A stretch of 64,000 nt of DNA. Origin: a candidate division Kazan bacterium GW2011_GWA1_50_15. Lineage in GTDB: Bacteria > Patescibacteriota > Kazan-3B-28. Each line of letters starts with the position of its first letter. The first letter of the stretch is position 1. Both the position numbers and the translations under genes were made by a program. The stretch lies in contig CP011216.1 of NCBI GenBank assembly GCA_001029795.1, positions 418,577 to 482,576 of the forward strand, written 5' to 3'. The notes under the pieces are model-generated. The model saw nothing but the letters and a program-made list of their open reading frames with translations. It was not told the DNA's origin and made no database searches. Positions 4,033-19,516 of this stretch are shown here, one piece after another.

Positions 4033-4104
4033 TCGGGGTGACAGGACTCGAACCTGCGGCCTCACGCACCCCATGCGCGCGCGCTACCACTGCGCCACAC
4101 CCCG
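4033..4104 (-). tRNA. tRNA-Pro (anticodon GGG most likely)
   Basis: reverse complement folds as tRNA: acceptor cggggtg/caccccg, anticodon loop atGGGgt, T-loop ggttcgagtcc; CCA not encoded; D/anticodon stem register is ambiguous because of GCGC repeats. Confidence 0.7.
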
Positions 4105-4146
4105 ACCCCAAAAGACAAGATGTTGTTGCCGATCCACACCCCAGTC

Positions 4147-4221
4147 TGGTGCTCCTGGAAGGAATTGAACCCTCATCTCTCCCTTAGGACGGGATAGCTC
4201 TATCCGTTGAGCTACAGGAGC
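4147..4221 (-). tRNA. tRNA-Arg (anticodon CCT)
   Basis: reverse complement: acceptor gctcctg/caggagc, D-arm gctc-aacggata-gagc, anticodon loop gtCCTaa, T-loop ggttcaattcc, CCA encoded. Confidence 0.8.
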
Positions 4222-4364
4222 GTTTAATAGAACAAACTAATTGTATAGGGTAAAATCAAGCTGACGGCAAGCACTATTAGGATTATCATCCAAACGGTGC
4301 GTTCCCGATTTTTCTTTTTGCCGGTCATCGTTTCCATTATATATGAGTTGAACAGCTAAATATT

Positions 4365-5452: not shown

Positions 5453-5473
5453 GCAGGCTTATTTTTCAGGCGT

Positions 5474-5550
5474 GGGGGCGTAGCTCAGCTGGTTAGAGCG
5501 CTTCCCTGTCACGGAAGAGGTCGCGGGTTCGAGTCCCGTCGCTCCCGCCA
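5474..5550 (+). tRNA. tRNA-Asp (anticodon GTC)
   Basis: acceptor gggggcg/cgctccc, anticodon stem cttcc/ggaag with loop ctGTCac, T-loop gggttcgagtccc, CCA encoded. Confidence 0.85.
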
Positions 5551-5610: not shown

Positions 5611-5928
5611 TTACCGACGTCCGAATCCGCCACGACCACCGCGGTCGCCACCCCGGTCACCGCCCCGCTCGGGACGATCACCCATCGGGCGAGCCTCGTT
5701 GACCACGATAGCGCGACCGTCCATCTCGTGACCATTGAATTTCTCAATGGCTGCCATGGCCTCGTCATCGTTTGGCATCTCCACAAACCCAAAACCGCGA
5801 CTGCGACCGGTGAACTTGTCCATCAGGACGGAAGCGGAATCAACCGCTCCGGCGCCCGAGAACAAATCACGCAATTGGTCATCCGTGGTTGTGTACGGTA
5901 AGTTACCGACATAAAGCTTCTTAGCCAT
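5611..5928 (-). CDS. RRM-type glycine-rich RNA-binding protein
   Basis: RNP2 LYVGNL and RNP1 RGFGFVEM motifs, C-terminal RGG/GDRGG repeats. Confidence 0.85.
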   Translation of the reverse strand: MAKKLYVGNLPYTTTDDQLRDLFSGAGAVDSASVLMDKFTGRSRGFGFVEMPNDDEAMAAIEKFNGHEMDGRAIVVNEARPMGDRPERGGDRGGDRGGRGGFGRR

Positions 5929-6107: not shown

Positions 6108-6758
6108 CTAGGCCTTATCGGGTGGGTTAACGTCCTCCTGTTGATGGAGTTCTATCTCCTGGCGGTATCTGTCGGCTGTTCGGGTATCGCTGGCGGCATC
6201 GTAGTAATCCACCATGGCTCTTAGGATCGAGATGTCTCGGTTGGTAGCCTTCAGGGCGACTAACAGTACCTGAATGATCTTGGGGTGCCTGTCCCCCCGC
6301 TCGTCGGTTGGCCAGCGGTTGTATAAATTAGCCAAGTTGAGATATGAGGTGGGGTTGTCTGGCTGAATAGTGATCGCTTTTTGGTAGGCCCCCTCGGCAT
6401 CTTCGAGCCGGAGCAGTTCGCGGTAAGTATTGCCCAGATTGTTCCAAGGCAAAGCTGCGGCCGGCCGAGTTTGGGCAGCTTTCAAATAGTACTGTTCGGC
6501 CTTATTCAGCTGGGATAAATTATAGTAACCCACTCCGGCCTGCATCATCGCCTCGAAATTATCCGGGTTGCGCCGAAGTTCGATCAGGGCCGCCAAAACG
6601 GTGTTGTAGGCCTTCAACGACCTGGCGCTAAACTCGCCTGGCCCCCAAAACCGATACCAAGTCCCCACCCCAGCCAAAAGCACCAGCGCCAATATCAGCG
6701 GGGCGAATTTACGCCAAAAAGTTTTGAGATGATACGGAAACGGCATATTGCAAATCAC
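6108..6758 (-). CDS. TPR-repeat membrane-anchored protein
   Basis: N-terminal TM helix then degenerate 34-aa TPR-like repeats (A..Y.KA....P....W.NLGN.Y). Confidence 0.6.
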   Translation of the reverse strand: MICNMPFPYHLKTFWRKFAPLILALVLLAGVGTWYRFWGPGEFSARSLKAYNTVLAALIELRRNPDNFEAMMQAGVGYYNLSQLNKAEQYYLKAAQTRPAAALPWNNLGNTYRELLRLEDAEGAYQKAITIQPDNPTSYLNLANLYNRWPTDERGDRHPKIIQVLLVALKATNRDISILRAMVDYYDAASDTRTADRYRQEIELHQQEDVNPPDKA

Positions 6759-6875: not shown

Positions 6876-8315
6876 TTGTTGCCCTTGTATACTCGAATAT
6901 TCAAAAACGCTACGTTTCTTGCCATTGCCGAGGCTATCAACCGAGCTTCGTCTTTTGTTGTAGGAATATGGTTGGCGCGATATCTGGGAGCGGATGATTT
7001 TGGCCGCTGGACTTTTGTGCTTAGTACGCTGGCGCTGTTTTATATCATCGCTGATCTCGGATTAAGCACCTTGGCCACTCGTGATATCGCCCAACAACGC
7101 GAAAAGTCTTCGCACTACCTGGGTAATCTCTTAGTGATCAAGCTGGTGTTGTCGTTGGTGGCGTTCCTGCTGGTCATCCTGACCATTCCTTGGTTGCGAG
7201 ACGATGCGAGGATCCTAACCATCACCTACCCACTTGGCCTGGCGACATTGATCAATGCCCTCACTCAAACACTCTATGTTACATTCCGCGCGCATGAAAA
7301 AATGTATTGGGAGGCGATCAGTAAAAGCATATCTGGGATAACTACCATTGCGGTAGTCGGGGCCTTGATCGTGGCACGGCTGGGCATCTCACCGTTGGGC
7401 TGGGGGTACGCTTTGGCTAGCTTACTGGTACTCGGGGTCACTACTGTCATCACGTGGCGATTTATCACCACATTCACTCTTAGGTTCGATCGCGACTTCG
7501 TTAAGTACTTGGCTATTGAAACGTGGCCATTTGCCCTGGGGACAGCTTTCGCATCAGTCTACCGCTACATCGATTCGATCATGCTGGGTCGCTTGCGTGA
7601 ATTGGCAGAAGTTGGACAGTATAACGCCGCCTACCGCATTGTTGACGCTATGATCTTGGGTTCCACCTTGGCAGGGGTAGCCATCTACCCCCTCTTGTCA
7701 CGTCTAGCCCACCACCATCAGATAGACAAGCTGCGCCACATCTCCGCCCGTTTAACCAGTCTGTTCGCTACTGTTACTGTCCCAGTTGTGGTGTTAGTGA
7801 TATTGTGGAGCACCACGATCATGCGTTGGATATATGGTAATCAGTACACAGCCGGAACGGCTAGTCTAGCGATACTAGCCGGTACAGCGCTAATATCTTA
7901 TTTGAACGTGGTACCAGTCAAGTTGCTCCAATCTACCCGCCACCAGCGCATCCCAATGTATGCGGCTGGGCTCGGTACGGTTGTTAATATTACCCTGAAT
8001 ATCTTGCTCATTCCTGCCTACGGCATGTGGGGAGCGGCGATCAGCACCCTGTGTGCCTATTTAGCAGTCTTTGCCATCTTGGAAATCCTGTTCTTCCGTG
8101 TTATAAACAGAGGTCGGTTAGGGGTCATCTGGAGGCCCCTGCTGGCTGGCCTAGCCATGGCCACTGCCATCTATTGGATGGTCTTACGAGGACAGAATGG
8201 CCTACTGGCAAGCGGCCTGGGGCTGATGGTTTATATTTTAATCGGTTGGCCAGATATCCAGGCACTCTGGCAGAGTGTGCGGCGCATTAGCGCGTCACCG
8301 GAAAACGAAGATTAG
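6876..8315 (+). CDS. polysaccharide/oligosaccharide flippase (Wzx-like, MOP superfamily)
   Basis: 479 aa with about 12-14 hydrophobic helices; N-terminus resembles Wzx flippases; TTG start, TATAAT at 6857-6862. Confidence 0.7.
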   Translation: MLPLYTRIFKNATFLAIAEAINRASSFVVGIWLARYLGADDFGRWTFVLSTLALFYIIADLGLSTLATRDIAQQREKSSHYLGNLLVIKLVLSLVAFLLVILTIPWLRDDARILTITYPLGLATLINALTQTLYVTFRAHEKMYWEAISKSISGITTIAVVGALIVARLGISPLGWGYALASLLVLGVTTVITWRFITTFTLRFDRDFVKYLAIETWPFALGTAFASVYRYIDSIMLGRLRELAEVGQYNAAYRIVDAMILGSTLAGVAIYPLLSRLAHHHQIDKLRHISARLTSLFATVTVPVVVLVILWSTTIMRWIYGNQYTAGTASLAILAGTALISYLNVVPVKLLQSTRHQRIPMYAAGLGTVVNITLNILLIPAYGMWGAAISTLCAYLAVFAILEILFFRVINRGRLGVIWRPLLAGLAMATAIYWMVLRGQNGLLASGLGLMVYILIGWPDIQALWQSVRRISASPENED

Positions 8316-8317
8316 TT

Positions 8318-9472
8318 ATGTATAAAGATAAGCGATTTATAGCTTTTATTCCTGCCCGGGGCGGTAGCCAGGGTATCCGCTTAAAGAATATGGCACCAGT
8401 AGGGGGCAAGCCGTTGGTAGCTTGGTCAATCCAGGCGGCGCTCGGTAGCCGCCATCTGGACGGCGTATACGTTAGTACCGACCATGCCAAGATAGCCAAG
8501 ACGGCCAAGCGCTACAACGCTCTGGTTGTCAAAGAACCTCCCCGGCTGGCTCGCTCCACCAGCCCGATCGAACCAGCCATTCTGCATGCGCTGAAAGAGA
8601 TCACAGAACGAAGCGGTAGACCAGACTATATAGTGCTGCTGCAGCCCACCTCCCCTATCCGCGGCTCGCGAGACATCGATAAGGCGATAGAGCAGATCAT
8701 GAAAAATAAAGGGGATAGTCTTCTAAGCGTTGCTCCGCACCATCACTTCATTTGGAATAGCAAACATCAACCGATCAACTACGACGCCCGGCGACGCCCT
8801 CGCCGTCAGAACCGCGAACCAGAGTGGCGCGAGAATGGTTCTATTTATATCACCAAGATGTCTGCTTTGTTAAAAAATCGTAATCGTCTTGCTGGGAAGA
8901 TCGTTTATTATCCTATGTCGGAAGCATGCTCGATCGAGATCGACAACCCTTATGATTTGTGGTTAGCCGATATTACCATACGCAGAGAACAGCGTCTGAC
9001 CAATACCCCCTATATAGAACTGCTGGTCGTTGATGTAGACGGTGTGATGACAGATGGCTCGACCTATTATGGCAAAACTGGCGAAAAGTTGAAGCGGTTT
9101 AACAAACGGGACGGCAAGGGTATTGAGTTGTGGCACAGGGCCGATCGGTATTCGGCTATTATCACGGGTGAAACTAGCCCCGTGGTGCGTCAACGGGCAC
9201 GGGATTTGCACATCCCCACGGTGTTCGAGGGATACGCTGGCAATAAATCATCCGCCTATGTCGCTCTCAAGAAGCAAACTGGCCTCCCAGACAATAAAAT
9301 TGCCTTTATTGGTGATGATATAATAGACTTGCCTGTGTTGCGACAAGCCGGGTTCTCCGCCTGCCCCGCAGACGCCGAGGACAAGGTCAAAGCTGTTGTT
9401 GACTATGTCTGCAAGGCTACTGGCGGCCACGGCTGTGTCAGAGAAGTGATTAATCTACTCCTGAAACAATAA
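8318..9472 (+). CDS. neuA: bifunctional CMP-nonulosonic acid synthetase (NeuA-like cytidylyltransferase) fused to KdsC-like HAD phosphatase
   Basis: N-terminal IPARGGSQGIRLKN cytidylyltransferase P-loop; C-terminal HAD motifs VVDVDGVMTDG (DxDG) and GDDIIDLP. Confidence 0.75.
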   Translation: MYKDKRFIAFIPARGGSQGIRLKNMAPVGGKPLVAWSIQAALGSRHLDGVYVSTDHAKIAKTAKRYNALVVKEPPRLARSTSPIEPAILHALKEITERSGRPDYIVLLQPTSPIRGSRDIDKAIEQIMKNKGDSLLSVAPHHHFIWNSKHQPINYDARRRPRRQNREPEWRENGSIYITKMSALLKNRNRLAGKIVYYPMSEACSIEIDNPYDLWLADITIRREQRLTNTPYIELLVVDVDGVMTDGSTYYGKTGEKLKRFNKRDGKGIELWHRADRYSAIITGETSPVVRQRARDLHIPTVFEGYAGNKSSAYVALKKQTGLPDNKIAFIGDDIIDLPVLRQAGFSACPADAEDKVKAVVDYVCKATGGHGCVREVINLLLKQ

Positions 9473-9480
9473 ATGATCCA

Positions 9481-10533
9481 ATGAAAACCATTCACGTCGG
9501 GAATAAGGCCATCGGCCCTAATCAGCCAGCGTTCGTAATCGCCGAGATCGGGATTAATCACCAGGGCGACTTGGCTATCGCCAAACAAATGATATTAATA
9601 GCCCATCAAGCTGGGGCGGATGCGGTCAAGTTCCAGAAACGCACTACCCACAAAATCCTGACCCGGGCTGGGCTGGACCGAATATATGACAGCCCCAACG
9701 CCTTTGGGCGAACCTACGGGGAGCACCGCGAGGCCCTAGAGTTTAATGAGGAACAGTACCGCGAGCTTAAACAATATGCCGATAGGGTAGGGATTTTAAT
9801 GCTAGCATCGGTTTGGGATGAGGATAGCGCTGATTTTATCGACCAACTGGACCTACCGGCATTCAAGGTCGCCTCGGCCGATCTGATCAATCTGCCGTTG
9901 TTGAAACACATCGCCCAAAAAGGACGGCCAATTATTCTCTCGACCGGGATGGCGACCATGGAAGAGATCGAGCAGGCAATACGTTGGCTGGAGCAGTGGA
10001 ATCACGATCTAATCATTCTTTATTGCGTGTCGACCTATCCCGCTTCCTTTGACGAGATAAATCTTAATCTCATCGGCGAATATCAACAAAAGTTCCCCGA
10101 TTACCCTATAGGTTATTCGGGACATGAACTGGGCATCGCTATCTCTACTCTAGCAGTGGCCGCGGGGGCCAAGGTGATCGAGCGGCACTTTACCCTCGAC
10201 CGCGCGATGAAAGGGGGCGACCATGCGGCCTCACTTGAACCCGGGGGGCTGGCTAGACTGGTGCGTGATGTTCATTTAGCCGAAAAGGTGTTTGGCAGCA
10301 CTCAGCCCAAGTCCCTGCTTGATTCAGAGAAGCCCATCCGCGAGAAACTAGCTAAGAGCGTAGTAGCTCAGGTGGCTATCCCTCAGGGAGAAACTATTAC
10401 CGCTGAGATGCTCACTACTAAGGGGCCCGGTAGTGGCTTACCCCCTAAATACATATATGAGCTGCCCGGGAAACAGGCAGCGGTCGATATCCCCGAGGAT
10501 ACCGTGATAATGCGGGATATGGTCAAGTGGTAG
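9481..10533 (+). CDS. neuB: N-acylneuraminate (nonulosonic acid) synthase, NeuB family, with C-terminal SAF domain
   Basis: FVIAEIGINHQGDL signature of NeuB/sialic acid synthases; about 350 aa. Confidence 0.85.
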   Translation: MKTIHVGNKAIGPNQPAFVIAEIGINHQGDLAIAKQMILIAHQAGADAVKFQKRTTHKILTRAGLDRIYDSPNAFGRTYGEHREALEFNEEQYRELKQYADRVGILMLASVWDEDSADFIDQLDLPAFKVASADLINLPLLKHIAQKGRPIILSTGMATMEEIEQAIRWLEQWNHDLIILYCVSTYPASFDEINLNLIGEYQQKFPDYPIGYSGHELGIAISTLAVAAGAKVIERHFTLDRAMKGGDHAASLEPGGLARLVRDVHLAEKVFGSTQPKSLLDSEKPIREKLAKSVVAQVAIPQGETITAEMLTTKGPGSGLPPKYIYELPGKQAAVDIPEDTVIMRDMVKW

Positions 10534-10549
10534 AACATCGGACGCTTTT

Positions 10550-11773
10550 ATGATGGGCACTGTTAAACGGCAACTACGGACTCTGGCTAATAGCCTGGGG
10601 CTTCAACTAAGGCTGATACTGGCTAGGCGCTGGGATAACGCCATTAATATCTGCCACATGGGAGCTTGGAGCGGCAATATGGGCGACTCCGTGTTGCTAT
10701 TGGGTATCCAACAAGAACTCCGTCGCGCTGCCGGGGATAAGCCCATTAACTTCTTTCCTGTGAATGTCCAGTTGACTCGTGTTACCCCTTGGTTAGCTCG
10801 AGTGATCAACCATAAATTTGATTTGTTACTTATTGGTGGCGGTGGATTATTTTTACATAAACCCGAGAGCCCTAGTCGGTCGAGTTGGCAGTTAGATATC
10901 ACTGAACTCGAGCTAGACATTTTGACCATCCCCGTTGTTGTGTACGGGATCGGTTACAACCAATTTGAATTTACCGACAGACTAATGCCTGATTTAGCTA
11001 ATCGTGTTCTCCGGCACCTGCAGACTAAAGCGGCGCTGTTCTCAGTCCGCAACCGCGGTACTCGCGAGGAGTTTATTCGAAGGGGCCTGGACCCGAACAA
11101 GATCACGGTTATCCCCGATCCTGCTATGTTCGTTGGACCGAAACCCTGCCCGATTCCTGGGCTCGACCCAAATAAACTTAATATTGGAATTAACTTGGCA
11201 GCTGACCGACTTGCATGGCGATACCCGGCCCCGGCATTTGAGACGGCCAAGGCGTGGGTAATGGCGCTAGGAAACGCTCTCAAGGCCATCCTCGCTCACC
11301 ACCCCGGGCAAATCTACTACCTATCACACATGTTAAAAACTGATGCGTTTTATACACGCATATTGGGGCAGATACTGGGCGACAAACTAATCGTCCTGGA
11401 AGATGTTTTGCCTCAACTATTTCCGCCAACTCTTAAATTGGCGCCCTGCTTCGTAGATATATACCGCCAGATGTCCTTAGTAATCGGGATGAGGGGGCAC
11501 GCCAATATCATTCCGTTCGGGGTAGCTACTCCGGTAATAGCGATGTCCAGCCATCCCAAGAACAGATTCTTTTTGGAGGAGATCGGGACCCCTGAGCAGT
11601 TGATCGATACTCGTTATTTGCCCGATGACGCTACCACGCAGCACATCGTCCAGGCCATCGAATCGACATTGGCTCGAGCTGAGGACTTGAAGGCCCACTA
11701 TCTCAAACGCAAGCGGGAGTTACACCAAACGGCCCAGTTGTTTAACCGGCAGATAGTTGCCCTTCTCCAATGA
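10550..11773 (+). CDS. polysaccharide pyruvyl transferase family protein (putative)
   Basis: N-terminal GAWSGNMGDSVLLLG glycine-rich motif resembles the pyruvyl transferase family; about 400 aa. Confidence 0.45.
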   Translation: MMGTVKRQLRTLANSLGLQLRLILARRWDNAINICHMGAWSGNMGDSVLLLGIQQELRRAAGDKPINFFPVNVQLTRVTPWLARVINHKFDLLLIGGGGLFLHKPESPSRSSWQLDITELELDILTIPVVVYGIGYNQFEFTDRLMPDLANRVLRHLQTKAALFSVRNRGTREEFIRRGLDPNKITVIPDPAMFVGPKPCPIPGLDPNKLNIGINLAADRLAWRYPAPAFETAKAWVMALGNALKAILAHHPGQIYYLSHMLKTDAFYTRILGQILGDKLIVLEDVLPQLFPPTLKLAPCFVDIYRQMSLVIGMRGHANIIPFGVATPVIAMSSHPKNRFFLEEIGTPEQLIDTRYLPDDATTQHIVQAIESTLARAEDLKAHYLKRKRELHQTAQLFNRQIVALLQ

Positions 11774-12639
11774 CATGCCCCATATGCAAAGACGCCAGAC
11801 ATCAGACGATTTGGACAAAGGGACGGTTTAGTCAGCGCTTAACCAACGTAGTCTGCCTAAATTGTGGCTTGGTGTTTGTTGATCCACCCGTTTCTCTGCC
11901 AGCCGACTTTTATCACGAAGATTACCGCAGACAGTATGTGGGTCAAGCAGTTCTCTCGCCCGACATCGCCGTTCGACGGCAGCGGGATGCCGAGAGACGT
12001 TGGCGTTATCTGGCTGATCGTCTCCCCCATTTGCTCCCCTCGCGGGGACTTGAGATCGGCTGCTCATCGGGACATTTTTTAAGGGTCCTAACTGATCACG
12101 GCTGGCAGAGTTTTGGCATTGACCCCGATCGGTCGTATACCGAGTATGGCCGTTCCCACCTTGGTCTGACCAATTTAACCACCGGTCTGTTTACGGGGGC
12201 AGAGTTTGAAAATGAACAGTTCGGACTAGTAGCGATGTTCCATACCCTTGAACACATCCCCGACCCGGTACTTTTACTGAATCACGTCCACCGACGGCTT
12301 GTTAACGGAGGAATACTATTTTTAGAGGTACCTGATGTGGAGCGCCCATACTTCGGCGACTTTGACTTCTTCTTCCAGGCAGCTCATCCCTTTAGTTTTT
12401 CGCCGTCCAGTCTTGGCAATTTGCTCCTCATGACTGGATTTGAGCTTATCCGTATCGATCATCATCAAAACTTTATGCTAGCGCTGGCCCGCAAAGTGTC
12501 TGCCGGGCAAGCACCGGTTGCTGACCCAAAAATCGCTCGGGATTTGCTCCGGCGTCTAAAATGGTGGAGGATAGGATATTGGGTCCTGTTCAGATGGGCC
12601 AAAGCTATTAAGCGGCTAGGAGCCAGAAATAGGTTATGA
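11770..12639 (+). CDS. class I SAM-dependent methyltransferase with N-terminal CxxC zinc ribbon
   Basis: CPIC...CLNC zinc ribbon; motif I LEIGCSSGHFL; ATGA overlap with upstream gene. Confidence 0.7.
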   Translation: MTCPICKDARHQTIWTKGRFSQRLTNVVCLNCGLVFVDPPVSLPADFYHEDYRRQYVGQAVLSPDIAVRRQRDAERRWRYLADRLPHLLPSRGLEIGCSSGHFLRVLTDHGWQSFGIDPDRSYTEYGRSHLGLTNLTTGLFTGAEFENEQFGLVAMFHTLEHIPDPVLLLNHVHRRLVNGGILFLEVPDVERPYFGDFDFFFQAAHPFSFSPSSLGNLLLMTGFELIRIDHHQNFMLALARKVSAGQAPVADPKIARDLLRRLKWWRIGYWVLFRWAKAIKRLGARNRL

Positions 12640-14339
12640 CACAGATCTTTATTGGCCAGCATCCCCGCCGGGTTCCCAGATTGATTAGACGCTGGGGACT
12701 GGTTATGTTCCGCTGGGTGATCCTACCGTGGCTACAGCGCCACCCCAACGTCCAGGCTGTTCTGCTAGATCTAGAAGAAGCTGTTATCTCTAAGCGTTGT
12801 AATTATCACCGCTATAAAACTATCGTCGATGATGACTACTCGGCGGTAATCGCAGCCGCTGATGATCTGGCCTGGCAGACCGCCGGCCATTGGTACGGAC
12901 CCATGCCCGCTCCCGCGCAGTATTGGGGAGAGATCAGCAAACAGAGCTTTTATCCCAGCCTGAAATGTCTCTATGAAGAAGCTGGGATTATTGATGCCAT
13001 TATTGAGCGGGAACAGCCCAATGTCGTCTGGCGCTGGGCCGATATCCCCCGTTTGACCGGCAACTGCCGGATTCGCAGCCTCAACCCAGCTTGGGCGCTA
13101 CTCACTGTTCGGTGGTGCGTAATAATCGGTACCCGCCTGCTTAGCAGTATAAAGGATCTAACCACGTTGGTCGCACCCAGCCCGACTAACTTTACACCTA
13201 CCAGTGGATACGTAGCTATGATAGACACTCCCAACCACTACCGCACCCTATCGGCCGTTGCTCAGGCCATGCCCGCAATTTACTTTCTTCCCCTTAACCG
13301 GAGCACCCAAAAATTGTGTCAACACGATGGCGCCAACTACGTCACCCCTTCGGCATTAGTAACGCTGCGTGATCTATTGCCCTACTGGCGTGGACTGAGA
13401 GTGGTCTGGCAGGGATGGGACAAACACCAAGCCGATATACCCGAGACCATTGTCCATGAGCTAAAGGTACTGGCAGCGTTTTACTGGCCCCGGTTGATCC
13501 TGCTGCGTTTGACGTTAAGCCGTCTTTGGGCCCAGTTTCACCCTCGAATAGCGTTGACGGCTGTGGGGTTTTGGGCCCCCTATAGACTATTTCTAGACCA
13601 GGCTGATCGATATAACGCCAAGCGAGTGGTAGTAGCCCACGGCAATATCCCCCGTACGCCGGCTTTTTATGGCGAGGCCAACTATGACCAGATCTTGGTG
13701 CGAGGCGCGGTCGAAGAAGATAACTTGATACGCATGGGCATCCCCAGCAGTTTAATCACGGTTGTGGGACAGTTGACTGACGCCAGGGACGTTTCTAAAG
13801 ACCGCTACTTGCCCGTTCAACCACCCAGGACTATCTTGGTCGCCATGCAGGGATTTGGCGGGGAGATGAGCTACTGCGAATACGCCAAATTTATCACCGA
13901 ACTTGATGGGGCGATTACATCCGATATAAATCGGCGGTGGATCATCCGGTTACATTATCAACAACCCCAATATTGGGGATTGTGGCGCGCAATGTTCGGG
14001 AACCGACCAAACGTGATATTGGTAACCGATCAACCATTCGAGACTTTACTGAAGAACTCTAAGATAGAGGCCTTAGTAACCGTCTTTTCCAGTACTGCGT
14101 TGGAGGCGGCGGCTCACAACATCCCGGTTGTCACGGTCAACTTTTCCGGCATGGAGGAACTGTTACCATTTTCCGCCACTGGGTTATCCCATGAAGTCCG
14201 CATGCCTCACGCGCTGACCCAGGTATTGGCCCGCCCCCTCACCCCGCCCAGCCGAGATGCGTATACTAAATTTATTGCTCGGAGCGGCCAAGCCACTGTT
14301 CGGTCGGCCATCGACGCGATTAATCAGACACTTCCCTAA
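12636..14339 (+). CDS. GT-B-fold glycosyltransferase-like protein (capsule/teichoic-acid-type or nonulosonic acid transferase candidate)
   Basis: C-terminal Rossmann-like segment ILVTDQPFETLLKNSKIEALVTVFSSTALEAAAHNIPVV; weak, context-driven call. Confidence 0.35.
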   Translation: MTQIFIGQHPRRVPRLIRRWGLVMFRWVILPWLQRHPNVQAVLLDLEEAVISKRCNYHRYKTIVDDDYSAVIAAADDLAWQTAGHWYGPMPAPAQYWGEISKQSFYPSLKCLYEEAGIIDAIIEREQPNVVWRWADIPRLTGNCRIRSLNPAWALLTVRWCVIIGTRLLSSIKDLTTLVAPSPTNFTPTSGYVAMIDTPNHYRTLSAVAQAMPAIYFLPLNRSTQKLCQHDGANYVTPSALVTLRDLLPYWRGLRVVWQGWDKHQADIPETIVHELKVLAAFYWPRLILLRLTLSRLWAQFHPRIALTAVGFWAPYRLFLDQADRYNAKRVVVAHGNIPRTPAFYGEANYDQILVRGAVEEDNLIRMGIPSSLITVVGQLTDARDVSKDRYLPVQPPRTILVAMQGFGGEMSYCEYAKFITELDGAITSDINRRWIIRLHYQQPQYWGLWRAMFGNRPNVILVTDQPFETLLKNSKIEALVTVFSSTALEAAAHNIPVVTVNFSGMEELLPFSATGLSHEVRMPHALTQVLARPLTPPSRDAYTKFIARSGQATVRSAIDAINQTLP

Positions 14340-15269
14340 ATGGATCTCTCAGTCGTTATTTTAAATTGGAATACCCGCGAGCTGTTGAGGGATTGTTTGG
14401 CGTCGATATATCGCTATACTGCCGGCATTAATTTCGAGGTGATAGTAGTGGATAACTCTTCGACTGATGGCAGCCAAGCGATGGTTGTCTCTGCATTCCC
14501 ACGGGTCAAACTAATCCAAAACACCGACAATCTTGGATTTGCTGTCGGCAACAATCAAGGCATCCATGTTGCCGCTGGCCGTTATATACTTCTGCTCAAT
14601 AGCGACACAATCGTACTCGGCAACTTAGCCGAGGCTGTTAGCTTTCTCGATCGGCACCCGCAGGTTGGGATGTTAGGAGTTAGGGTGTTAAATAAGATCG
14701 GTACTATCCAAGAGACTTGCACTAGACGGTTCCCGAGTATCTTGAGTAAGCTAGTCAACTATTTCCGTATCTCGGCTCGGTTGATCGGCCGACTAGTCCC
14801 CCATCTAGAACAGGACCAACAATTTGACTACGATCGGGCCCAGCCGGTTGAGGTGGTGTCGGGTGCATTTATGATGCTTCCCCGCGGGACGATTGAACAA
14901 GTGGGGGGGCTAGATGAATCATTCTTCCTCTATGCCGAGGACATTGATTGGGCCAAACGGATCCATGCGGCTGGCTATGAAATTTGGTACGCGCCAGTCG
15001 TGACTATTACCCACTATGGCGGAGAGACCAGTTCGCAAATACCCGACCGAACCCATTATCTGCGTTTGCACAGTTTGGCCAAATATTTCGACAAACACTA
15101 TGGCCGCCCTTACGGGAATCTCTACCGTACAGTACTGTACATTACGGTTCTGCTAACCTATCTACCGGTGTTGGTAACTTGGTGGCTGTCCTACGGTAAA
15201 CGCCGCAGCCGCCTGGGCGAGTTGGTGAGACTTTTCCACAAGGTCTTATTTAACCCCGCCCTTCGATAG
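14340..15269 (+). CDS. glycosyltransferase family 2
   Basis: N-terminal SVVILNWN...VIVVDNSSTDGS and DxD-type GT-A motifs. Confidence 0.8.
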   Translation: MDLSVVILNWNTRELLRDCLASIYRYTAGINFEVIVVDNSSTDGSQAMVVSAFPRVKLIQNTDNLGFAVGNNQGIHVAAGRYILLLNSDTIVLGNLAEAVSFLDRHPQVGMLGVRVLNKIGTIQETCTRRFPSILSKLVNYFRISARLIGRLVPHLEQDQQFDYDRAQPVEVVSGAFMMLPRGTIEQVGGLDESFFLYAEDIDWAKRIHAAGYEIWYAPVVTITHYGGETSSQIPDRTHYLRLHSLAKYFDKHYGRPYGNLYRTVLYITVLLTYLPVLVTWWLSYGKRRSRLGELVRLFHKVLFNPALR

Positions 15270-15273
15270 CACT

Positions 15274-15969
15274 CTACTTGGTTACCTCGACATACATTGA
15301 CCTATAATCCTCGTTGGCTTCGGCTGGATAAGTCCCTTCAAAATCAAAATCGCGGCAGCTGGTTTCTTGAAACTGCTTACGCGTAATTCCCTCTCGCCGG
15401 AAACCGGCCCTAGCCAAATCGTTGCAGAGCGATTCAAAATCCCATGCGTTCTGGTGAGCCAGAGTATTATCCCCTAGCGCTCGCTGGCCGCTAGGAGATA
15501 AAAAGTCCTCCTTTAGCGCCTCGAACAAAGAGTAGTCTTTGTTGTATTTGGTTTTGGCTCGCTCCATCCGCCTGCGGAAGAGTTGGAAGTCTCGGTTACC
15601 GCTGACGTACTCTCTAATACTGCGTTCTGCGTCTGGCAGAACCAAACGGAAACTTCCTCCCATTTTCAATACCCGATAACGCTCGCTAAAGATTCGCGGA
15701 GCAGCAAAAATACTCATATGTTCAAACACATGGGAACCATAGATGGAACTGACCGATCCGCTCGGGAGGGGTAGAGATTGATCTTTATTAAAATCCAGAC
15801 GAATATCGCTGGTATGTTCTACATCGATGGCGAGCCAATGGGTTGACGGTTTAACCCACTCGGGACCGGGGCCAAAGTGAAGTTTATACGGCAGTTGGTA
15901 ATGGTGCAAATCTAGCGGCTGTCGCTTTGTCACCAACCGATACCGGCGCATGAGTTTCTCGACTATCAT
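15274..15969 (-). CDS. SAM-dependent methyltransferase-like protein
   Basis: methyltransferase post-motif-II segment SVSSIYGSHVFEHM; no clear motif I, so tentative. Confidence 0.4.
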   Translation of the reverse strand: MIVEKLMRRYRLVTKRQPLDLHHYQLPYKLHFGPGPEWVKPSTHWLAIDVEHTSDIRLDFNKDQSLPLPSGSVSSIYGSHVFEHMSIFAAPRIFSERYRVLKMGGSFRLVLPDAERSIREYVSGNRDFQLFRRRMERAKTKYNKDYSLFEALKEDFLSPSGQRALGDNTLAHQNAWDFESLCNDLARAGFRREGITRKQFQETSCRDFDFEGTYPAEANEDYRSMYVEVTK

Positions 15970-18215
15970 CGCAGAGAATCAATGAATTTTTGTGCGGCTG
16001 TGGCCTTGGCAGGGTCTAGCTTAGCGACCATTTTCGCCTCGTTCACAGCATCATCTAACCGGCCTAGGGCTTGATAGATAAGGGCTGAGTTCATGTGGTA
16101 CTCTACCTTCTTGGGGTCCATCTCAAGGAGCGCCTGCTGATATACCAGCGCAGCATTATACTTTTGGCTTTGGAAGAGAAGATCCGTGATCGCCGAAAGC
16201 AACACTGGTTCGACGTCGACGAAATTGATCTTTATTTGACTAGCTTTATCAAAGTAATTAATCGCTATATCGTTGTGTTTCTCTAAGTACTCTAGTACGC
16301 CGAACCAAAAGTTTATCTCTCGAGGCGCCCGGCTAAGGGAGTTGGCCTGGTCGAGAGCGGCTCGGGCAGCCTTAAAATCCTCAATTAACATCAGACCTTT
16401 AGCCCAGTTCAGATAAAAGTATTCTCGGTTGCTATTATCGGCTATCAGGGCGTTGAACTCCACCTCGGCGGTGGCTTTAGCTTCTGGCATAACTAGCGCT
16501 GTTAGTAAATGGAACAGCGGACGGCTCACTTGGAGCTGAACATTGTTGGGCTCTGCCGCTGCCAGCTGCGCCTGTCTTGCGAGACCTTTCTCCCAAGCGG
16601 CTAAAGCCTCTTGCGGCTTGTTCTGTTTATAGAGAGCCACCCCACCACGGCGATACCATCCCAGATCAGAATAGTGAAAAAATTGGTTCCAAGGTGACCA
16701 GCGCTGATCGAGAGATTCTTGGATAGTAAGAGCGGTTTGGTAGTCCTCCCGCTGCGCCAACGCCTCAGCCCGGTAAGTTGAACGGCTGTTCGCCAGAGTT
16801 GGGATTAGGACAACGATAACCGTGTAGCCGGCAACTCCGGCGAACAACGACCCAGTAATCCAGCGCGAGAGCCGACCAACTGGACGCTGGAGCGGGACCG
16901 ACTCTGTTGATAACCCACTGGACACACGCGATGCGATAAGGGCGACTAATACCCCGCAATAAATTAGACTCAACGGGGTTTCAAAGGCGGTCATGTCATA
17001 CACCAGATAGGCCACCATTGTGGCGATAAGTGATACCCAGAGTGTGTTTTCTGGCCCAATATAGTTTTGGGTTAACAGCCGTCGCAGATAGACCCCAACC
17101 GCAACCAGCACGGCCAGCAGCCACAGCAGCCCACCTAGGCCGTTAGTAGTAAGTTGGTCGATGACTAAGTTGTGGGCTCGATCGGTAAATGTTTCACCAT
17201 ATCCCAGATCACCCAGCTCGGCCGAGTAGCTCTGATTCCAAGCGACATTAACATTCTCGTTGCCGAATCCAAAAATCGGTCTGGTGCGCCAACTATCCAG
17301 CAGGGTCGAATATGTGACTAGACGAGAGCGAATAGAGTTACTAGCCAGCGTATAAGAAAATATGCGCTCCAGCCCCAAGGGGGTCTTAAACCAGAACAAT
17401 CCAAAACTGATCACTAATAATATCCCTAACACTAGCCAAACGATTTTAGAGTGGCTTCTCTGGGTTTGGCCACTTTGACGACGGTTGACCAGCCAGAGCA
17501 GTATCAACCAGACGATCAACCCGGATACCAAGCCCAACAGCGGGCCACGGGACAACGACAGCACGATCGCGGCAACCTGGAGTATCGCGCCTAGACCGTA
17601 CCACAACCGGCTGGCTAACCGCTTGGATTTCCAACCCAGATATAGAGTAATAAAAATGGTTAATAGTAAAAGTCCGCCCATAAAAATTGGGTTACCAGTC
17701 AGGGCGTGGATGCGCCCGCTGGATAGGCCGATCAGCCCTGGCAGATGGAGCGCCTGACCCAAGCCATACAGACCAGTTAGAATGCCTACATTGGCCACCC
17801 ATACTAGCAGCCTATCCCACCCAGATTTTGGTATCCAAATGGCCGCCAAAAACCAGACCCACCACCACAGACTAGTAAAAAGCAGTAGGCCGGTGGCTCG
17901 ACTGGTAGTCCCCCAAAAACTGCGGAAGAAGTCTACCCCAAAATAGGCACTCGCAAATGACCAGAGCAGCCAACCGAGCGTTACCCAAAATAATCGATTT
18001 CGCCAAATTGGAGCAATTCGCGACCAACTAAAAGCTGGCGACCAAACTACCGCCAGCGTGAAAATTAGTGTTAGCGACAGAAATAGCAGTTCGCGACCGA
18101 AACCAAACCGGTGATGGAGACCCGAGGGCAGCATCAGCGGGAGTAGAATTGTAGCAATTAAAAGTAGGTCTGCCAACCACCCGTAACCCGTGATCCGCCA
18201 ATTAGCCTTGGTCAT
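15966..18215 (-). CDS. O-antigen ligase/Wzy_C-family polytopic membrane protein fused to C-terminal TPR repeats (possible O-oligosaccharyltransferase)
   Basis: about 450 aa with at least 10 TM helices including a SRGPLLGL loop, then TPR repeats. Confidence 0.6.
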   Translation of the reverse strand: MTKANWRITGYGWLADLLLIATILLPLMLPSGLHHRFGFGRELLFLSLTLIFTLAVVWSPAFSWSRIAPIWRNRLFWVTLGWLLWSFASAYFGVDFFRSFWGTTSRATGLLLFTSLWWWVWFLAAIWIPKSGWDRLLVWVANVGILTGLYGLGQALHLPGLIGLSSGRIHALTGNPIFMGGLLLLTIFITLYLGWKSKRLASRLWYGLGAILQVAAIVLSLSRGPLLGLVSGLIVWLILLWLVNRRQSGQTQRSHSKIVWLVLGILLVISFGLFWFKTPLGLERIFSYTLASNSIRSRLVTYSTLLDSWRTRPIFGFGNENVNVAWNQSYSAELGDLGYGETFTDRAHNLVIDQLTTNGLGGLLWLLAVLVAVGVYLRRLLTQNYIGPENTLWVSLIATMVAYLVYDMTAFETPLSLIYCGVLVALIASRVSSGLSTESVPLQRPVGRLSRWITGSLFAGVAGYTVIVVLIPTLANSRSTYRAEALAQREDYQTALTIQESLDQRWSPWNQFFHYSDLGWYRRGGVALYKQNKPQEALAAWEKGLARQAQLAAAEPNNVQLQVSRPLFHLLTALVMPEAKATAEVEFNALIADNSNREYFYLNWAKGLMLIEDFKAARAALDQANSLSRAPREINFWFGVLEYLEKHNDIAINYFDKASQIKINFVDVEPVLLSAITDLLFQSQKYNAALVYQQALLEMDPKKVEYHMNSALIYQALGRLDDAVNEAKMVAKLDPAKATAAQKFIDSLR

Positions 18216-18822
18216 TTTGTGACATCAGATAATCTAAGAACGACTGTAGTAGTTCAGAATCTTTGATCCGGCCTAGACCCTGACGAGTGATATCAATGGC
18301 TAGCTGGCGGCCGTAGGCTCGGTCCATATCGGGCCGCAATAGATACAGATCGCCTAAGTTCCGGTAGACGGTTTCTTGGCGCGGGTTCAATTTTAATGAA
18401 CGTGTGTAGGCCGCTTCTGCTCCGATAAAGTCCCCTCTATCCCTTAGGACATTGGCTAGATTATTCCAAGCGAACCAAGCTCTAGGTTCAACTTCTACGG
18501 CCAGTTGATAGGCCGCCCCCGACATCTCTAGCTGATTTAACGTGTACAAAGACACTGCCCGCTGATACAGAGCGTTAAAGTTACGGGGATGGGTCTCAAG
18601 GATCTTGTTAGCTTCCTCTAGTCCGGCGCTAACGTCTGAGTTAAGTTGGGGTGGCTGACGCAGCCCCACTGTGTTGGCTACCCCTAGCCCCAGCCAAACT
18701 AACAACCCGAGGCCGATCAGCCCCATCCCCCACTTAAGCCAACTGGGATGCCGAGAATTAGTGATTAGCCTCCAAATAGTTGTCCCTGCGCGACGCAATT
18801 TTACAATTAATGATCTAACCAT
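18202..18822 (-). CDS. TPR-repeat membrane-anchored protein
   Basis: N-terminal TM helix plus TPR repeats; overlaps neighbours. Confidence 0.6.
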   Translation of the reverse strand: MVRSLIVKLRRAGTTIWRLITNSRHPSWLKWGMGLIGLGLLVWLGLGVANTVGLRQPPQLNSDVSAGLEEANKILETHPRNFNALYQRAVSLYTLNQLEMSGAAYQLAVEVEPRAWFAWNNLANVLRDRGDFIGAEAAYTRSLKLNPRQETVYRNLGDLYLLRPDMDRAYGRQLAIDITRQGLGRIKDSELLQSFLDYLMSQNDQG

Positions 18823-19390
18823 TTTTTAAACGAGTTAATTCATCCTTAGCCGCTTGATTATTGGGATTAAGCGCGACCACCTTTTCAAAGTATTCGATAG
18901 CCTTGTCGGTGTTGCCGATCGCCTCATAGAAATTACCCAGAACTAGAGGATAGTGAATGTTTTTAGGATCCTTAGTGGCCAAATCGGTCATATATTTTTC
19001 GAATTTATCCCGACCGGGCGTCTCTGGATGCGCACCGTAGAGATCTCCCAATTCATAGTACACATTCGTATAATCCTCGTGGCCATTGTTGATGGCTATC
19101 CACCACTCCTCCGCTGCCGCGTCGTAGAGCCCTAGGTCGTTGTAGACGTGCCCGGCTTCGTAGTGGCCGACATAGCCCTTTGGCAGACGGATATTGAGTT
19201 GACGGTAAGTAGCGGCGGCCTGATTCAGATCGCCGGCGGTTACTTGAACCCGAGCTTTAGCTAAGAGTTGACCGATGGGCATCGTCGCACGCAGAACCAG
19301 CCAGACGGCAACCCCGGCCACCAGCACTATGCCTCCGGCTAGCCACCATACCCTGTGGTCCCACAAGAATTTTTTATCAAAAATATTCAT
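18815..19390 (-). CDS. TPR-repeat membrane-anchored protein
   Basis: N-terminal TM helix (WWLAGGIVLVAGVAVWLVL) plus TPR repeats. Confidence 0.6.
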   Translation of the reverse strand: MNIFDKKFLWDHRVWWLAGGIVLVAGVAVWLVLRATMPIGQLLAKARVQVTAGDLNQAAATYRQLNIRLPKGYVGHYEAGHVYNDLGLYDAAAEEWWIAINNGHEDYTNVYYELGDLYGAHPETPGRDKFEKYMTDLATKDPKNIHYPLVLGNFYEAIGNTDKAIEYFEKVVALNPNNQAAKDELTRLKNG

Positions 19391-19424
19391 CTAATTATCA
19401 TTTTACAACAGTCTGCTCTAGGCA

Positions 19425-19470
19425 AAGCTCCCCCAATGGATTGGGGGAGCTTCAAAAAAGCTCCCCCAAT
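19425..19470. repeat. tripartite inverted-repeat element A-A'-A (aagctcccccaat / attgggggagctt / aagctcccccaat)
   Basis: 13-nt arm at 19425-19437, its reverse complement at 19440-19452, and a second direct copy at 19458-19470; can form two mutually exclusive hairpins. Confidence 0.6.
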
Positions 19471-19516
19471 CGCCAGGTTGTGCGCTACCTGTAAACCCGT
19501 GTCTAGAACTTGAACA

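Follow-up and report, generated by a model that had tools for sequence, protein, structure and literature searches.

The DNA window analyzed here is a 64,000-nucleotide stretch (contig CP011216.1 of assembly GCA_001029795.1, positions 418,577 to 482,576) from candidate division Kazan bacterium GW2011_GWA1_50_15 (Kazan-3B-28), a groundwater member of the candidate phyla radiation (CPR; Patescibacteria) with a genome of approximately 602 kb. The subject of this work is a locus of approximately 17 kb in this window, corresponding to about 3% of the 0.6-Mb genome. It consists of two convergent operons that are separated by a gap of 4 nt. The plus-strand operon encodes a predicted pathway for a glycan that contains a nonulosonic acid (NulO; a sialic-acid-like sugar), and the minus-strand operon encodes a Wzy_C-domain protein with tetratricopeptide repeats (TPR) and a secreted S-layer-like protein. 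The cluster proteins were found at 100% identity in four public assemblies or metagenomes (GCA_001004375.1, contig LCQY01000001 of 601.5 kb; GCA_003484385.1; one Joint Genome Institute [JGI] metagenome; and one Logan assembly), indicating that the cluster is not an assembly artefact. The GC content is flat over the region (0.50–0.53), such that the composition shows no sign of recent transfer. In the public annotation, the products include a 'sialic acid synthase', a 'KDO 8-P phosphatase / N-acylneuraminate cytidylyltransferase', and an 'O-antigen ligase', while the 567-aa and 1239-aa proteins discussed below are hypothetical. No earlier account of this locus, or of nonulosonic acids in CPR bacteria, came up in the literature searched, which covered nonulosonic and sialic acids in CPR/Patescibacteria, DUF6716, and the Kazan genome.

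The original prediction, made from the sequence of the window, listed nine genes with their domains at positions 6876–18215, seven of them as a translationally coupled run on the plus strand. All nine open reading frames (ORFs) are present at these coordinates and with the predicted domains, as judged from the ORF map together with scans against Pfam and NCBIfam. The spacings within the plus-strand run of seven genes are 2, 8, 16, -4, -4, and 0 nt. The first gene (6876..8315) encodes a Wzx-type flippase of the multidrug/oligosaccharidyl-lipid/polysaccharide (MOP) superfamily with approximately 12 hydrophobic segments (PF01943 [Polysacc_synt], 126.9 bits; also PF13440, MatE, and MurJ matches). 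Its start is ambiguous within 6876–6971; the longest ORF, from the TTG at 6876, has 479 aa, and several public annotations give 447 aa. The next two genes encode a fusion of a NeuA domain with a haloacid dehalogenase (HAD) domain (8318..9472; PF02348 [CTP_transf_3], 73.6 bits, plus the HAD domain) and a NeuB synthase with a C-terminal SAF domain (9481..10533). These are followed by a polysaccharide pyruvyl-transferase-family protein of the CsaB/WcaK family (10550..11773; PF04230, 66.3 bits with a cutoff of 25.3). This protein has no match at E ≤ 1 among PDB sequences, and its best NCBIfam model is CsaB, with 42 bits against a cutoff of 213 bits; judged from its family, it is predicted to add a pyruvate ketal. 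The fifth gene (11770..12639) encodes an S-adenosylmethionine-dependent methyltransferase (Methyltransf_23, 82 bits) with an N-terminal Cys4 zinc ribbon (CxxC...CxxC in the translation), which is a probable sugar O-methyltransferase. The last two genes encode a 567-aa cytoplasmic protein with a glycosyltransferase (GT)-B fold (12636..14339), for which Pfam gives only sub-threshold DUF6716 and GT1 matches, and a GT2 glycosyltransferase (14340..15269; PF00535, 77 bits) with a C-terminal transmembrane helix at residues 261–279.

On the minus strand, the two genes of the original list are a 231-aa methyltransferase-like protein (15274..15969; weak Methyltransf_11 match, 22 bits) and the 749-aa Wzy_C-TPR protein (15966..18215; Wzy_C, 48.5 bits with a cutoff of 31.7, plus TPR and 13 transmembrane helices). 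The former is the last gene of its operon and overlaps the latter by 4 nt. The earlier bounds need correction on this side, as the minus-strand operon runs past 18215 through two genes for membrane-anchored TPR proteins of 206 aa (18202..18822) and 191 aa (18815..19390), with the gene for a 1239-aa secreted S-layer-like protein (19517..23236) at its head. The 206-aa TPR gene overlaps the Wzy_C gene by 14 nt. A third gene for a membrane-anchored TPR protein (216 aa; 6108..6758, minus strand; TPR_1, TPR_17, and TPR_11 matches) lies at the other end of the locus, divergent from the glycan operon. Each of the three small TPR proteins has one N-terminal transmembrane helix as an anchor and is predicted to face outward.

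The closest relative of this cluster lies on a 31.8-kb contig of JGI metagenome 3300066487 (L008/L009), where genes for Wzx, NeuB, pyruvyl transferase, a 560-aa protein, methyltransferase, and GT2 converge on a Wzy_C-TPR gene. The counterparts in L008 are 45% (Wzx), 50% (pyruvyl transferase), 43% (Methyltransf_23 protein), and 46% (GT2) identical to those of Kazan, and a 41% identical homolog of the 216-aa TPR protein is found at the same position. The 231-aa methyltransferase-like gene is absent from L008, and a LAGLIDADG endonuclease-like gene is located upstream of this relative.

For the synthase, both the PF03102 TIM barrel (277.8 bits with a cutoff of 22.1; E = 9e-83) and the C-terminal SAF domain (39.1 bits with a cutoff of 21) are above the gathering scores, which identifies it as a genuine member of the NeuB family. 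Compared with the Neisseria meningitidis NeuB (PDB 1xuu), the metal- and phosphoenolpyruvate (PEP)-binding motifs AEIGINH, GYSGH, and IERHFT are conserved; these presumably contain the binding residues E25, H215, and E234/H236 in N. meningitidis numbering. The placement by profile hidden Markov models (HMMs) that had been proposed as a check gave a family assignment, but the protein is below the equivalog cutoffs of both candidate models, with 326.9 bits for TIGR03569 (N-acetylneuraminate/legionaminate synthase; cutoff 399.65) and 243.7 bits for the PseI model TIGR03586 (cutoff 340.25). The nearest homolog outside its own cluster is that of the L008/L009 contig (P0002; 65% identity), followed by homologs with 55–60% identity that are named Margulisbacteria, DPANN archaea, Cloacimonetes, and Marinimicrobia, as well as a single transcript of eukaryotic origin. 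The Kazan protein has D134 and G315 where N. meningitidis has E134 and R314. Among the best 120 homologs, the Asp is present in all 120 and the Gly in 105. In PMC8208679, E134D is described for archaeal and eukaryotic synthases and the loss of R314 for eukaryotic ones, with the speculation that one of these two changes reflects the use of a phosphorylated substrate.

The gene context was sampled for five NeuB relatives. In four of these (55–58% identity), NeuB is found in a trio of NeuA, NeuB, and a small HAD, and none of the four trios has amino-sugar genes. The trio is accompanied by a Capsule_synth transferase in L011, a WaaA-like transferase in L024, and GT29-like plus WaaA-like transferases in L025 and the P0016 contig. 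The fifth relative, from Woesearchaeota (L010; 59% identity), lacks a HAD and is located in a cluster with dehydratase and aminotransferase genes typical of the routes to legionaminic (Leg) and pseudaminic (Pse) acids, which shows that the NeuB clade is not uniform. As an observation on these relatives themselves, the trio in the P0016 contig, L024, and L025 (NeuB at 7001–8050 in each) is directly followed by a Glycos_transf_N gene (WaaA/Kdo-transferase-like, GT30); the P0016 contig and L025 also have a short Glyco_transf_29 gene (eukaryote-type sialyltransferase family), and the L024 NeuB is named Marinimicrobia. These arrangements suggest that a Kdn-type sugar (Kdn, ketodeoxynononic acid) is built into lipopolysaccharide (LPS)-like glycolipids in these lineages.

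The NeuA half of the fusion protein (residues ~1–220) is closest to NeuA and CMAS enzymes among PDB sequences (9t4z NeuA, E = 2.5e-32; 6ifd; 1qwj, mouse CMAS). With NCBIfam models, it scores 93.9 bits for PseF and at most 49.9 bits for KdsB. The HAD half (residues ~230–384) passes TIGR01670 (YrbI subfamily, C0-type HAD; 149.2 bits with a cutoff of 106.95), and its best PDB matches are KdsC and BT1713. HAD motifs I–IV are intact, namely DVDG (DxDG), TG, K, and GDDIID (GDDxxD). The Bacteroides thetaiotaomicron phosphatase BT1713 (PDB 3e81) reads TGE56...R64..K67, and the mutant structures 4hgq and 4hgr alter precisely E56 and K67, which we take to be the published specificity markers, together with Arg64. 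The MAFFT alignment indicates that the Kazan HAD keeps the Glu56 and Arg64 positions (TGE...R), whereas the four solved KdsC enzymes aligned all have (T/S)GR at the Glu56 position. The small HADs beside NeuB in L011, L024, and L025 have all three residues (E, R, and K).

Taken together, these features indicate that the nonulosonic acid pathway of the original prediction stands. That prediction had named clustering with enzymes of 3-deoxy-D-manno-octulosonate (KDO) synthesis beforehand as the outcome that would speak against it, and no such clustering was found. A KDO pathway can be rejected, given that the synthase is NeuB and no KdsA-type (DAHP_synth_1) synthase is present in the window, the cytidylyltransferase is not KdsB-like, and the phosphatase reads TGE rather than (T/S)GR. 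What has to be refined is the route to the sugar. Tannerella and Campylobacter, which had been invoked as parallels, use Pse/Leg routes. No Pse, Leg, or NeuC gene was found in the cluster or elsewhere in the 64-kb window, and a phosphorylated Kdn-type route is predicted instead. Such a route, in which a sugar 6-phosphate and PEP would be converted to NulO-9-phosphate, NulO, and finally cytidine monophosphate (CMP)-NulO, is reasonably supported. The sequence from mannose-6-phosphate (Man-6-P) through Kdn-9-phosphate and Kdn to CMP-Kdn is established in B. thetaiotaomicron and Prymnesium, and the sugar-6-phosphate/NulO-9-phosphate route is also that of animals (PMC6200933). We infer that the sugar in Kazan is most likely Kdn made from Man-6-P, which is the most economical reading because no source of N-acetylmannosamine 6-phosphate (ManNAc-6-P) is in sight.

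Some observations weigh against this reading. At the Lys67 position, the Kazan HAD has Asp, with Arg one residue before (Arg-Asp, compared with Glu-Lys67 in BT1713). It also scores slightly higher with KdsC models (143 bits) than with the BT1713 model NF058599 (124.9 bits; cutoff 180), and both scores are below the cutoffs. Furthermore, the cluster of L008 lacks a NeuA-HAD gene, and the Woesearchaeota relative of NeuB is part of a Leg/Pse-type cluster.

The predicted route has counterparts in several organisms. A sugar 6-phosphate synthase, a C0-type HAD phosphatase, and a cytidylyltransferase are also found in BT1712–BT1714 of B. thetaiotaomicron, in Prymnesium parvum (PMC6200933), and in the vertebrate NANS/NANP/CMAS set. 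Unlike Kazan, Bacteroides has three separate proteins and the Lys67 marker; the specificity of the Kazan enzymes is a predicted one. The Kazan fusion shares its domain order, with the cytidylyltransferase ahead of a KdsC-like HAD, with vertebrate CMAS, and the C-terminal half matches the HAD-like domain of mouse CMAS (PDB 3ewi, E = 6.9e-15), just as the N-terminal half matches 1qwj. The HAD-like domain of vertebrate CMAS is catalytically inactive, whereas all HAD motifs are intact in the Kazan fusion.

The 567-aa protein is rare. A k-mer homolog search returned only the protein itself. When 1.84 billion representatives were scanned exhaustively with HMMER, 108 proteins were obtained at E ≤ 1e-3, and only two of these reached E ≤ 1e-30. 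No match at E ≤ 1 was found among PDB sequences. A confident AlphaFold2 model built with 41 family sequences (predicted local distance difference test score, pLDDT, of 86; predicted template modeling score, pTM, of 0.88) has a GT-B core at residues ~190–567 behind an extra alpha/beta domain. The family-invariant residues are H335, G336, D351, H440, S485, and P497. Among the 41 family members, 34 are near the BFO_1060 family glycosyltransferase model (NF046086) and 38 are near TIGR04396 in NCBIfam, in both cases with scores far below the cutoffs and only in the C-terminal domain. Genetic evidence has established BFO_1060, TFUB4_00887, and Tanf_01245 as the Leg/Pse transferases of the S-layer O-glycan of Tannerella, and these proteins have the sialyltransferase HP motif (PMC5420450). 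In the family of the 567-aa protein, the His of this motif is invariant (H440), and its Pro is Tyr in the 567-aa protein. The gene context points in the same direction in two places. The 560-aa homolog of L008 is encoded between the pyruvyl transferase and the methyltransferase, and in an unrelated organism (L026; a contig with 66% GC), the gene for a 574-aa homolog follows that of a NeuA-HAD fusion after 14 nt. The 567-aa protein belongs to a rare family outside the curated ones. It has a 2-epimerase-like fold and a remote relationship to the NulO transferases of Tannerella. We consider it rather likely, with somewhat better than even confidence, that this protein is a CMP-nonulosonate:glycan transferase.

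Speaking against this assignment, the closest solved folds are 2-epimerases, the relatives score 24–53 bits with the BFO_1060 model (cutoff 200) and match it only in the C-terminal domain, and the 567-aa protein itself matches no NCBIfam model and by score is not a member of the BFO_1060 family. The sugar may instead be N-acetylneuraminic acid (Neu5Ac) or another N-acylated nonulosonate, with the 567-aa protein acting as a divergent hydrolyzing 2-epimerase of the NeuC/GNE type that supplies N-acetylmannosamine (ManNAc), or ManNAc-6-P through a separate kinase, and with another protein as the transferase. Pfam Epimerase_2 matches in 27 of the 41 family members, a profile-profile alignment (hhalign) to true epimerases with 95.5% probability, the proximity of NeuB to the NeuB/LegI model in NCBIfam, and the public annotation of NeuB as an N-acetylneuraminate synthase are all consistent with such a scenario. 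However, the similarity to solved epimerases is confined to the C-terminal nucleotide-binding domain, and at the positions of the catalytic Asp/Glu/Glu/His of the epimerases (presumably D95, E117, E131, and H213 in Escherichia coli numbering), the 567-aa protein has Phe, Ala, a loop deletion, and a residue other than His. With all four catalytic residues absent, a canonical NeuC-type UDP-GlcNAc 2-epimerase was rejected. Moreover, no kinase is found in the cluster, the cluster would be left without a nonulosonate transferase, and the pairing of NeuA-HAD with the homolog in L026 would be expected for a protein that uses the CMP-sugar no less than for one that provides the substrate. The Neu5Ac scenario is thus improbable in our view, and a Kdn-type sugar with the 567-aa protein as candidate transferase is retained in the following.

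The Wzy_C-TPR protein is divergent. Only eight homologs passed in a k-mer search, the best of which are 30–33% identical, and comparison with PDB sequences gave only TPR proteins. Foldseek comparison of its model with the PDB was dominated by TPR matches and gave nothing on the membrane domain. Residues R223, R298, and D345-R346-x-H348 are invariant among the homologs, and they presumably correspond to the Arg/Arg/His set of WaaL and PglL. Based on the 13 helices and the positive-inside rule, the catalytic loop and the TPR domain of approximately 260 aa are predicted to lie outside the membrane. Both the fold and the conserved Arg/His residues match the ligase WaaL. The protein shares with WaaL and PglL/PilO the Wzy_C domain and a large external loop with the conserved Arg and D-R-x-H-N motif; it differs by its 13th transmembrane helix, its extracytoplasmic TPR domain, and an identity of only ~13% to anything solved. 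It is a GT-C enzyme of the WaaL/PglL type and a candidate O-oligosaccharyltransferase or ligase.

An LPS O-antigen locus, in which a conventional O-antigen polymerase had been named as the other outcome that would contradict the original prediction, was not found. Of the 50 ORFs with 150 aa or more in the 64-kb window, none is an Lpx, Kds, or Waa gene, and the host is a CPR bacterium; this candidate was rejected. CPR bacteria are not known to have LPS, and unlike for WaaL, a lipid A-core would not be expected as the acceptor in such a cell.

Among Wzy_C-domain oligosaccharyltransferases described for S-layer proteins, of which WsaB and WsfB are predicted ones, TPRs are found either at the C-terminus of the enzyme (WsfB, PglL) or in a small protein encoded just upstream (WsaA/WsaB) (PMC2943079). 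The slg clusters of Geobacillus stearothermophilus NRS 2004/3a and Paenibacillus alvei thus resemble the Kazan locus in several ways (PMC2943079). They have a Wzy_C enzyme with C-terminal TPRs (WsfB) or a preceding small TPR protein (WsaA, 168 aa), they are located beside the S-layer structural gene, and they include glycosyltransferases and a methyltransferase. The 206-aa TPR protein of Kazan is analogous to WsaA. In other respects, these systems differ. Geobacillus has an ABC transporter and Kazan a Wzx flippase; Kazan has a predicted nonulosonate in the glycan and a pyruvyl transferase, a CPR host of ~0.6 Mb, and no WsaP-like priming enzyme in the locus; and the sequence of the 1239-aa protein bears no relationship to those of SgsE and SpaA.

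The 1239-aa protein has a signal peptide that ends in AxA, an acidic composition with few basic residues and no Cys, and high proportions of Thr (12%), Ala (12%), Gly (11%), Asp (8%), and Ser (8%), with Ser and Thr together accounting for 20%. This is the composition that would be expected of an S-layer protein. No Pfam domain, internal repeat, or paralog in the window was found. The D(S/T)(A/I/L/V/M/T) sequon of Bacteroidota occurs only six times, and there is no reason to expect that it applies to this organism. In a scan of a genome collection, the N-terminal ~165 residues (33–197) were found to recur with 44–48% identity at two loci, in a 515-aa protein of another Patescibacteria genome (L012, 9998–11545, in a housekeeping context) and in a Saccharibacteria contig (L013, 3290–3793). 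This segment may be a cell-wall-anchoring module shared among CPR surface proteins.

The linkage between the surface protein and the Wzy_C-TPR protein is well conserved. The order of ECF (extracytoplasmic function) sigma factor, DUF5667 protein, surface protein, TPR protein, and Wzy_C-TPR protein was found in all eight loci of sufficient length (the window, L005, L008, L014, L015, L016, L020, and L021). A metagenome scan with an alignment of the surface protein gave ten loci, of which five were long enough (L014, L015, L016, L020, and L021), all with the same order. The orthologs of the 1239-aa protein are 45–57% identical and always followed by TPR and Wzy_C-TPR genes. Homologs of the 206-aa TPR protein are encoded between the surface-protein and Wzy_C genes in L005, L014, L015, L016, and L020, and those of the 191-aa TPR protein were found in L015 and L020. 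The glycan cassettes beside this module vary. In L005, with a 1264-aa surface protein (51% identity), a DUF5667-like gene, and a ligase of only 30% identity, the downstream cassette differs and includes dTDP-sugar genes, TylF, Epimerase_2, and LicD. The cassette of L014 contains Epimerase_2, Polysacc_synt_2, and RmlD-like genes, and that of L021 contains GT9, GT4, and Capsule_synth genes. Among these loci, the NeuB set is found only in the window and L008.

In the 126-nt spacer after the 1239-aa gene (19391–19516), a strong hairpin with a 15-bp GC-rich stem (19441..19469, minus strand; z = -3.2 for the fold of the whole spacer) separates this gene from the TPR/ligase genes. A third copy of the TTGGGGGAGC arm is located just downstream and could form an alternative hairpin. 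Hairpins with GC-rich stems of 11–13 bp are also found just after the stop codon of the surface-protein gene in L005, L014, L015, L016, and L020. These hairpins differ in sequence and are equally strong, suggesting that structure rather than sequence is conserved. The hairpin probably acts as a terminator or attenuator and keeps read-through to the TPR/ligase genes low, and such a role fits a highly expressed structural gene with limited downstream read-through. Scans for consensus promoters and terminators gave no matches above the shuffled expectation. Directly upstream of the surface-protein gene, two tandem pairs of genes for an ECF sigma factor and a DUF5667 protein occupy 23280–27519 on the minus strand (25037–25606 with 23280–24263, and 26989–27519 with 25948–26919), with a gene for a 208-aa membrane protein at 24287–24913 on the same strand. 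The order is kept in all related loci, and these pairs may regulate the expression of the surface layer.

It is conceivable that the association with the surface protein is nothing but inherited gene order and that the product is a free capsule, exopolysaccharide, or glycolipid, with an ordinary acidic polysaccharide from a Wzx/Wzy-dependent system being released, loosely attached, or ligated to a membrane lipid. Wzx together with a Wzy_C protein forms the minimal signature of such a system, and all syntenic loci were found through homologs of the surface protein and hence represent one lineage. However, the order of surface protein, TPR protein, and Wzy_C-TPR protein is retained even where the surface proteins are only 45–50% identical, the ligases are ~30% identical, and the genes on either side are different. 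The overlapping genes, with only a hairpin setting off the surface-protein gene, argue for one functional unit, and Wzz, Wza, and Wzc genes are absent. We regard this explanation as very improbable.

These patterns bear on which protein would be glycosylated. The original prediction proposed O-glycosylation of a surface or S-layer-like protein and pointed to large Thr/Ser-rich secreted proteins encoded in the same stretch. The first part is supported by an S-layer-like protein that is genetically tied to the ligase in all eight loci and by an architecture similar to those of WsfB and WsaA–WsaB. The second part holds only in that two giant proteins are indeed encoded in the window. They are not linked to the ligase operon, and the acceptor is likely the 1239-aa protein of the ligase's own operon rather than these distant proteins. 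The original prediction spoke of a general O-glycosylation system; the reading proposed here concerns this one protein. The two giants, of 1508/1471 aa and 1765 aa (38637–48366, minus strand), are either secreted or anchored in the membrane and contain 16–17% Ser and Thr; they have only weak domain matches, to a beta-propeller (Kelch-type) for the 1471/1508-aa protein and to TSP3_bac, Big_1, and Invasin_D3 for the 1765-aa protein. The comparison with Campylobacter flagellin is a poor one, as the glycosylation of flagellin in that system uses no oligosaccharyltransferase.

We propose the following mechanism. NeuB would condense a sugar 6-phosphate and PEP; with Man-6-P as the most likely substrate, the product would be Kdn-9-phosphate. 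The HAD domain of the fusion would strip the 9-phosphate, and the NeuA domain would convert the sugar acid to the CMP-sugar. The 567-aa GT-B enzyme would then transfer the nonulosonate onto an oligosaccharide that is presumably linked to undecaprenyl-diphosphate. GT2 would also extend this oligosaccharide, which would be modified further by the pyruvyl transferase and by one or more methyltransferases. Wzx would flip the completed unit across the membrane to the outside, where the small TPR proteins would assist the Wzy_C-TPR enzyme in transferring the glycan en bloc, most likely to Ser/Thr residues of the 1239-aa protein. The gene content, the domains and folds, the intact catalytic motifs, the Glu56 marker, and the synteny are direct results of the analyses; the identity of the sugar, the donor used by the 567-aa enzyme, the lipid carrier, and the protein acceptor are inferred. 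We place roughly even confidence in the overall outcome, a methylated and pyruvylated Kdn-type glycan that is O-linked to the S-layer-like protein.

Several points count against this outcome. Sequence and fold alone do not separate an O-oligosaccharyltransferase from a polymerase or another ligase, and the S-layer nature of the 1239-aa protein is read solely from the composition, the signal peptide, and the conserved gene order. The 64-kb window has no gene for a phosphoglycosyltransferase (Bac_transf or Glycos_transf_4) that could prime the glycan. In addition, the pairing of Wzx with a pyruvyl transferase near S-layer genes also resembles the anchoring system of Bacillus. In B. anthracis, the flippase-like and pyruvyl-transferase genes csaA and csaB are found beside the S-layer genes. 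Acidic Kdn polymers are likewise present in walls without an outer membrane, as the Kdn teichulosonic acids of Actinobacteria demonstrate. TPR proteins also serve as scaffolds in exopolysaccharide secretion and are common in polysaccharide export.

An acidic, pyruvylated, and nonulosonate-containing cell-wall glycopolymer, comparable to these teichulosonic acids or to the pyruvylated wall polysaccharide of Bacillus, is the main alternative explanation, in which Wzy_C-TPR would be a polymerase or wall ligase and the S-layer-like protein would bind non-covalently by its N-terminal module. In addition to the Wzx/pyruvyl-transferase pair near the surface-protein gene, with CsaB as the best NCBIfam model, and the TPR scaffolds, it draws on the recurrence of the N-terminal 165 aa in other secreted proteins of Patescibacteria, as is the case for wall-anchoring modules. 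Teichoic-acid-like cassettes are present beside Wzy_C-TPR orthologs (Epimerase_2, LicD, and CTP_transf_like in L005; Epimerase_2 in L014), and Wzx has no other polymerase candidate. However, the 1239-aa protein has no S-layer homology (SLH) domain or other known wall-binding domain, in which it differs from the CsaA/CsaB system, and the score of the pyruvyl transferase (42 compared with 213 bits) is far below the CsaB cutoff. A WaaL-type enzyme with TPRs is not known to be part of the CsaA/CsaB or teichulosonic systems. Moreover, Wzy polymerases normally vary with the repeat unit, whereas the Wzy_C-TPR proteins are orthologous over their full length (28–38% identity) beside unrelated cassettes. 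The fold and the conserved Arg/His are ligase-like, the TPR fusion with a small TPR gene upstream is the documented pattern of S-layer oligosaccharyltransferases, and the window lacks Wzz and LCP genes (one weak Wzz match was found on a TPR protein of L005). We consider the wall polymer a serious but rather unlikely alternative to O-glycosylation of the S-layer-like protein.

With O-glycosylation as the preferred interpretation, the cluster of Tannerella forsythia is another useful comparison (PMC6120980; PMC5420450). In both organisms, Wzx, a CMP-nonulosonate pathway, a GT-B protein as proven or candidate nonulosonate transferase, methyltransferases, and glycosyltransferases are encoded in one cluster, and the S-layer is decorated in Tannerella as is predicted for Kazan. 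Relatives of the 567-aa protein match the BFO_1060 family model, below its cutoff. In contrast to the six-enzyme UDP-/GDP-amino-sugar routes by which Tannerella makes Pse and Leg, Kazan has only the synthase and the fused phosphatase/cytidylyltransferase. Finally, the oligosaccharyltransferase of Bacteroidota is still without an identified gene (PMC12871550), whereas an adjacent candidate is present in Kazan.

Other genes in the window are described here for completeness. Six tRNA genes (Thr, Pro, Gly, Pro, Arg, and Asp) are located at 1058–5550, just upstream of the locus, with that for Asp at 5474–5550, and a small RRM_1 RNA-binding protein is encoded beside the cluster (5611–5928, minus strand). 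In two other assemblies of the same species (L003 and L004), the region upstream of the 216-aa TPR gene differs and contains an IMPDH gene instead of bPH_2-like genes, indicating a strain-level rearrangement at the left border of the cluster. Farther from the cluster, genes are present for a 644-aa secreted protein with a lamin-tail domain (LTD; 35124–37058, plus strand), a 734-aa secreted S8 peptidase (52018–54222, minus strand), and BacA (undecaprenyl-diphosphatase; 51203–52060, minus strand), the last being the sole lipid-carrier-related gene of the window.

The kind of system is already known, both from S-layer or general O-glycosylation clusters (Geobacillus, Paenibacillus, and Tannerella) and from the Kdn phospho-pathway (Bacteroides, Prymnesium, and animals). 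What appears to be new, as far as can be judged from genes and models, is the combination of a CPR host of ~0.6 Mb, a fused and apparently active phosphatase-cytidylyltransferase, a rare candidate transferase that seems derived from epimerases, and a conserved module of surface protein, TPR protein, and Wzy_C-TPR protein with swappable cassettes. In its boldest form, the interpretation would be that the S-layer of an episymbiotic, ultra-small CPR bacterium is covered with a sialic acid of a eukaryote-like type (Kdn or a methylated or pyruvylated derivative), made by a two-gene pathway with three activities and an active CMAS-type fusion. The 567-aa protein would then found a new glycosyltransferase family of nonulosonate transferases derived from the 2-epimerase fold, the Wzy_C-TPR protein with its satellite TPR proteins would be the first identifiable O-oligosaccharyltransferase of CPR bacteria, and the swapping of cassettes would vary the surface identity presented to hosts and phages. 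All of this holding jointly is a tentative and somewhat doubtful proposition.

CPR/Patescibacteria are thought to be attached to hosts, and their surface chemistry is almost uncharted. That so reduced an organism commits about 3% of its genome to decorating itself with an acidic, sialic-acid-like sugar suggests that the surface is central to its life, for example in host attachment, protection, or phage evasion. A phosphorylated Kdn-type route is also found beside GT29-like and WaaA-like transferases in the few relatives sampled, some of which are named Marinimicrobia, Fibrobacteres–Chlorobi–Bacteroidetes (FCB) group, or Cloacimonetes. The rare 567-aa family is a plausible new class of nonulosonate transferase, and the Wzy_C-TPR protein is an explicit oligosaccharyltransferase candidate for a step without a known enzyme in the nonulosonate O-glycosylation of Bacteroidota. 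Taken together, the locus provides concrete candidates for a CPR S-layer protein, for the machinery that may glycosylate it, and for the sugar involved.

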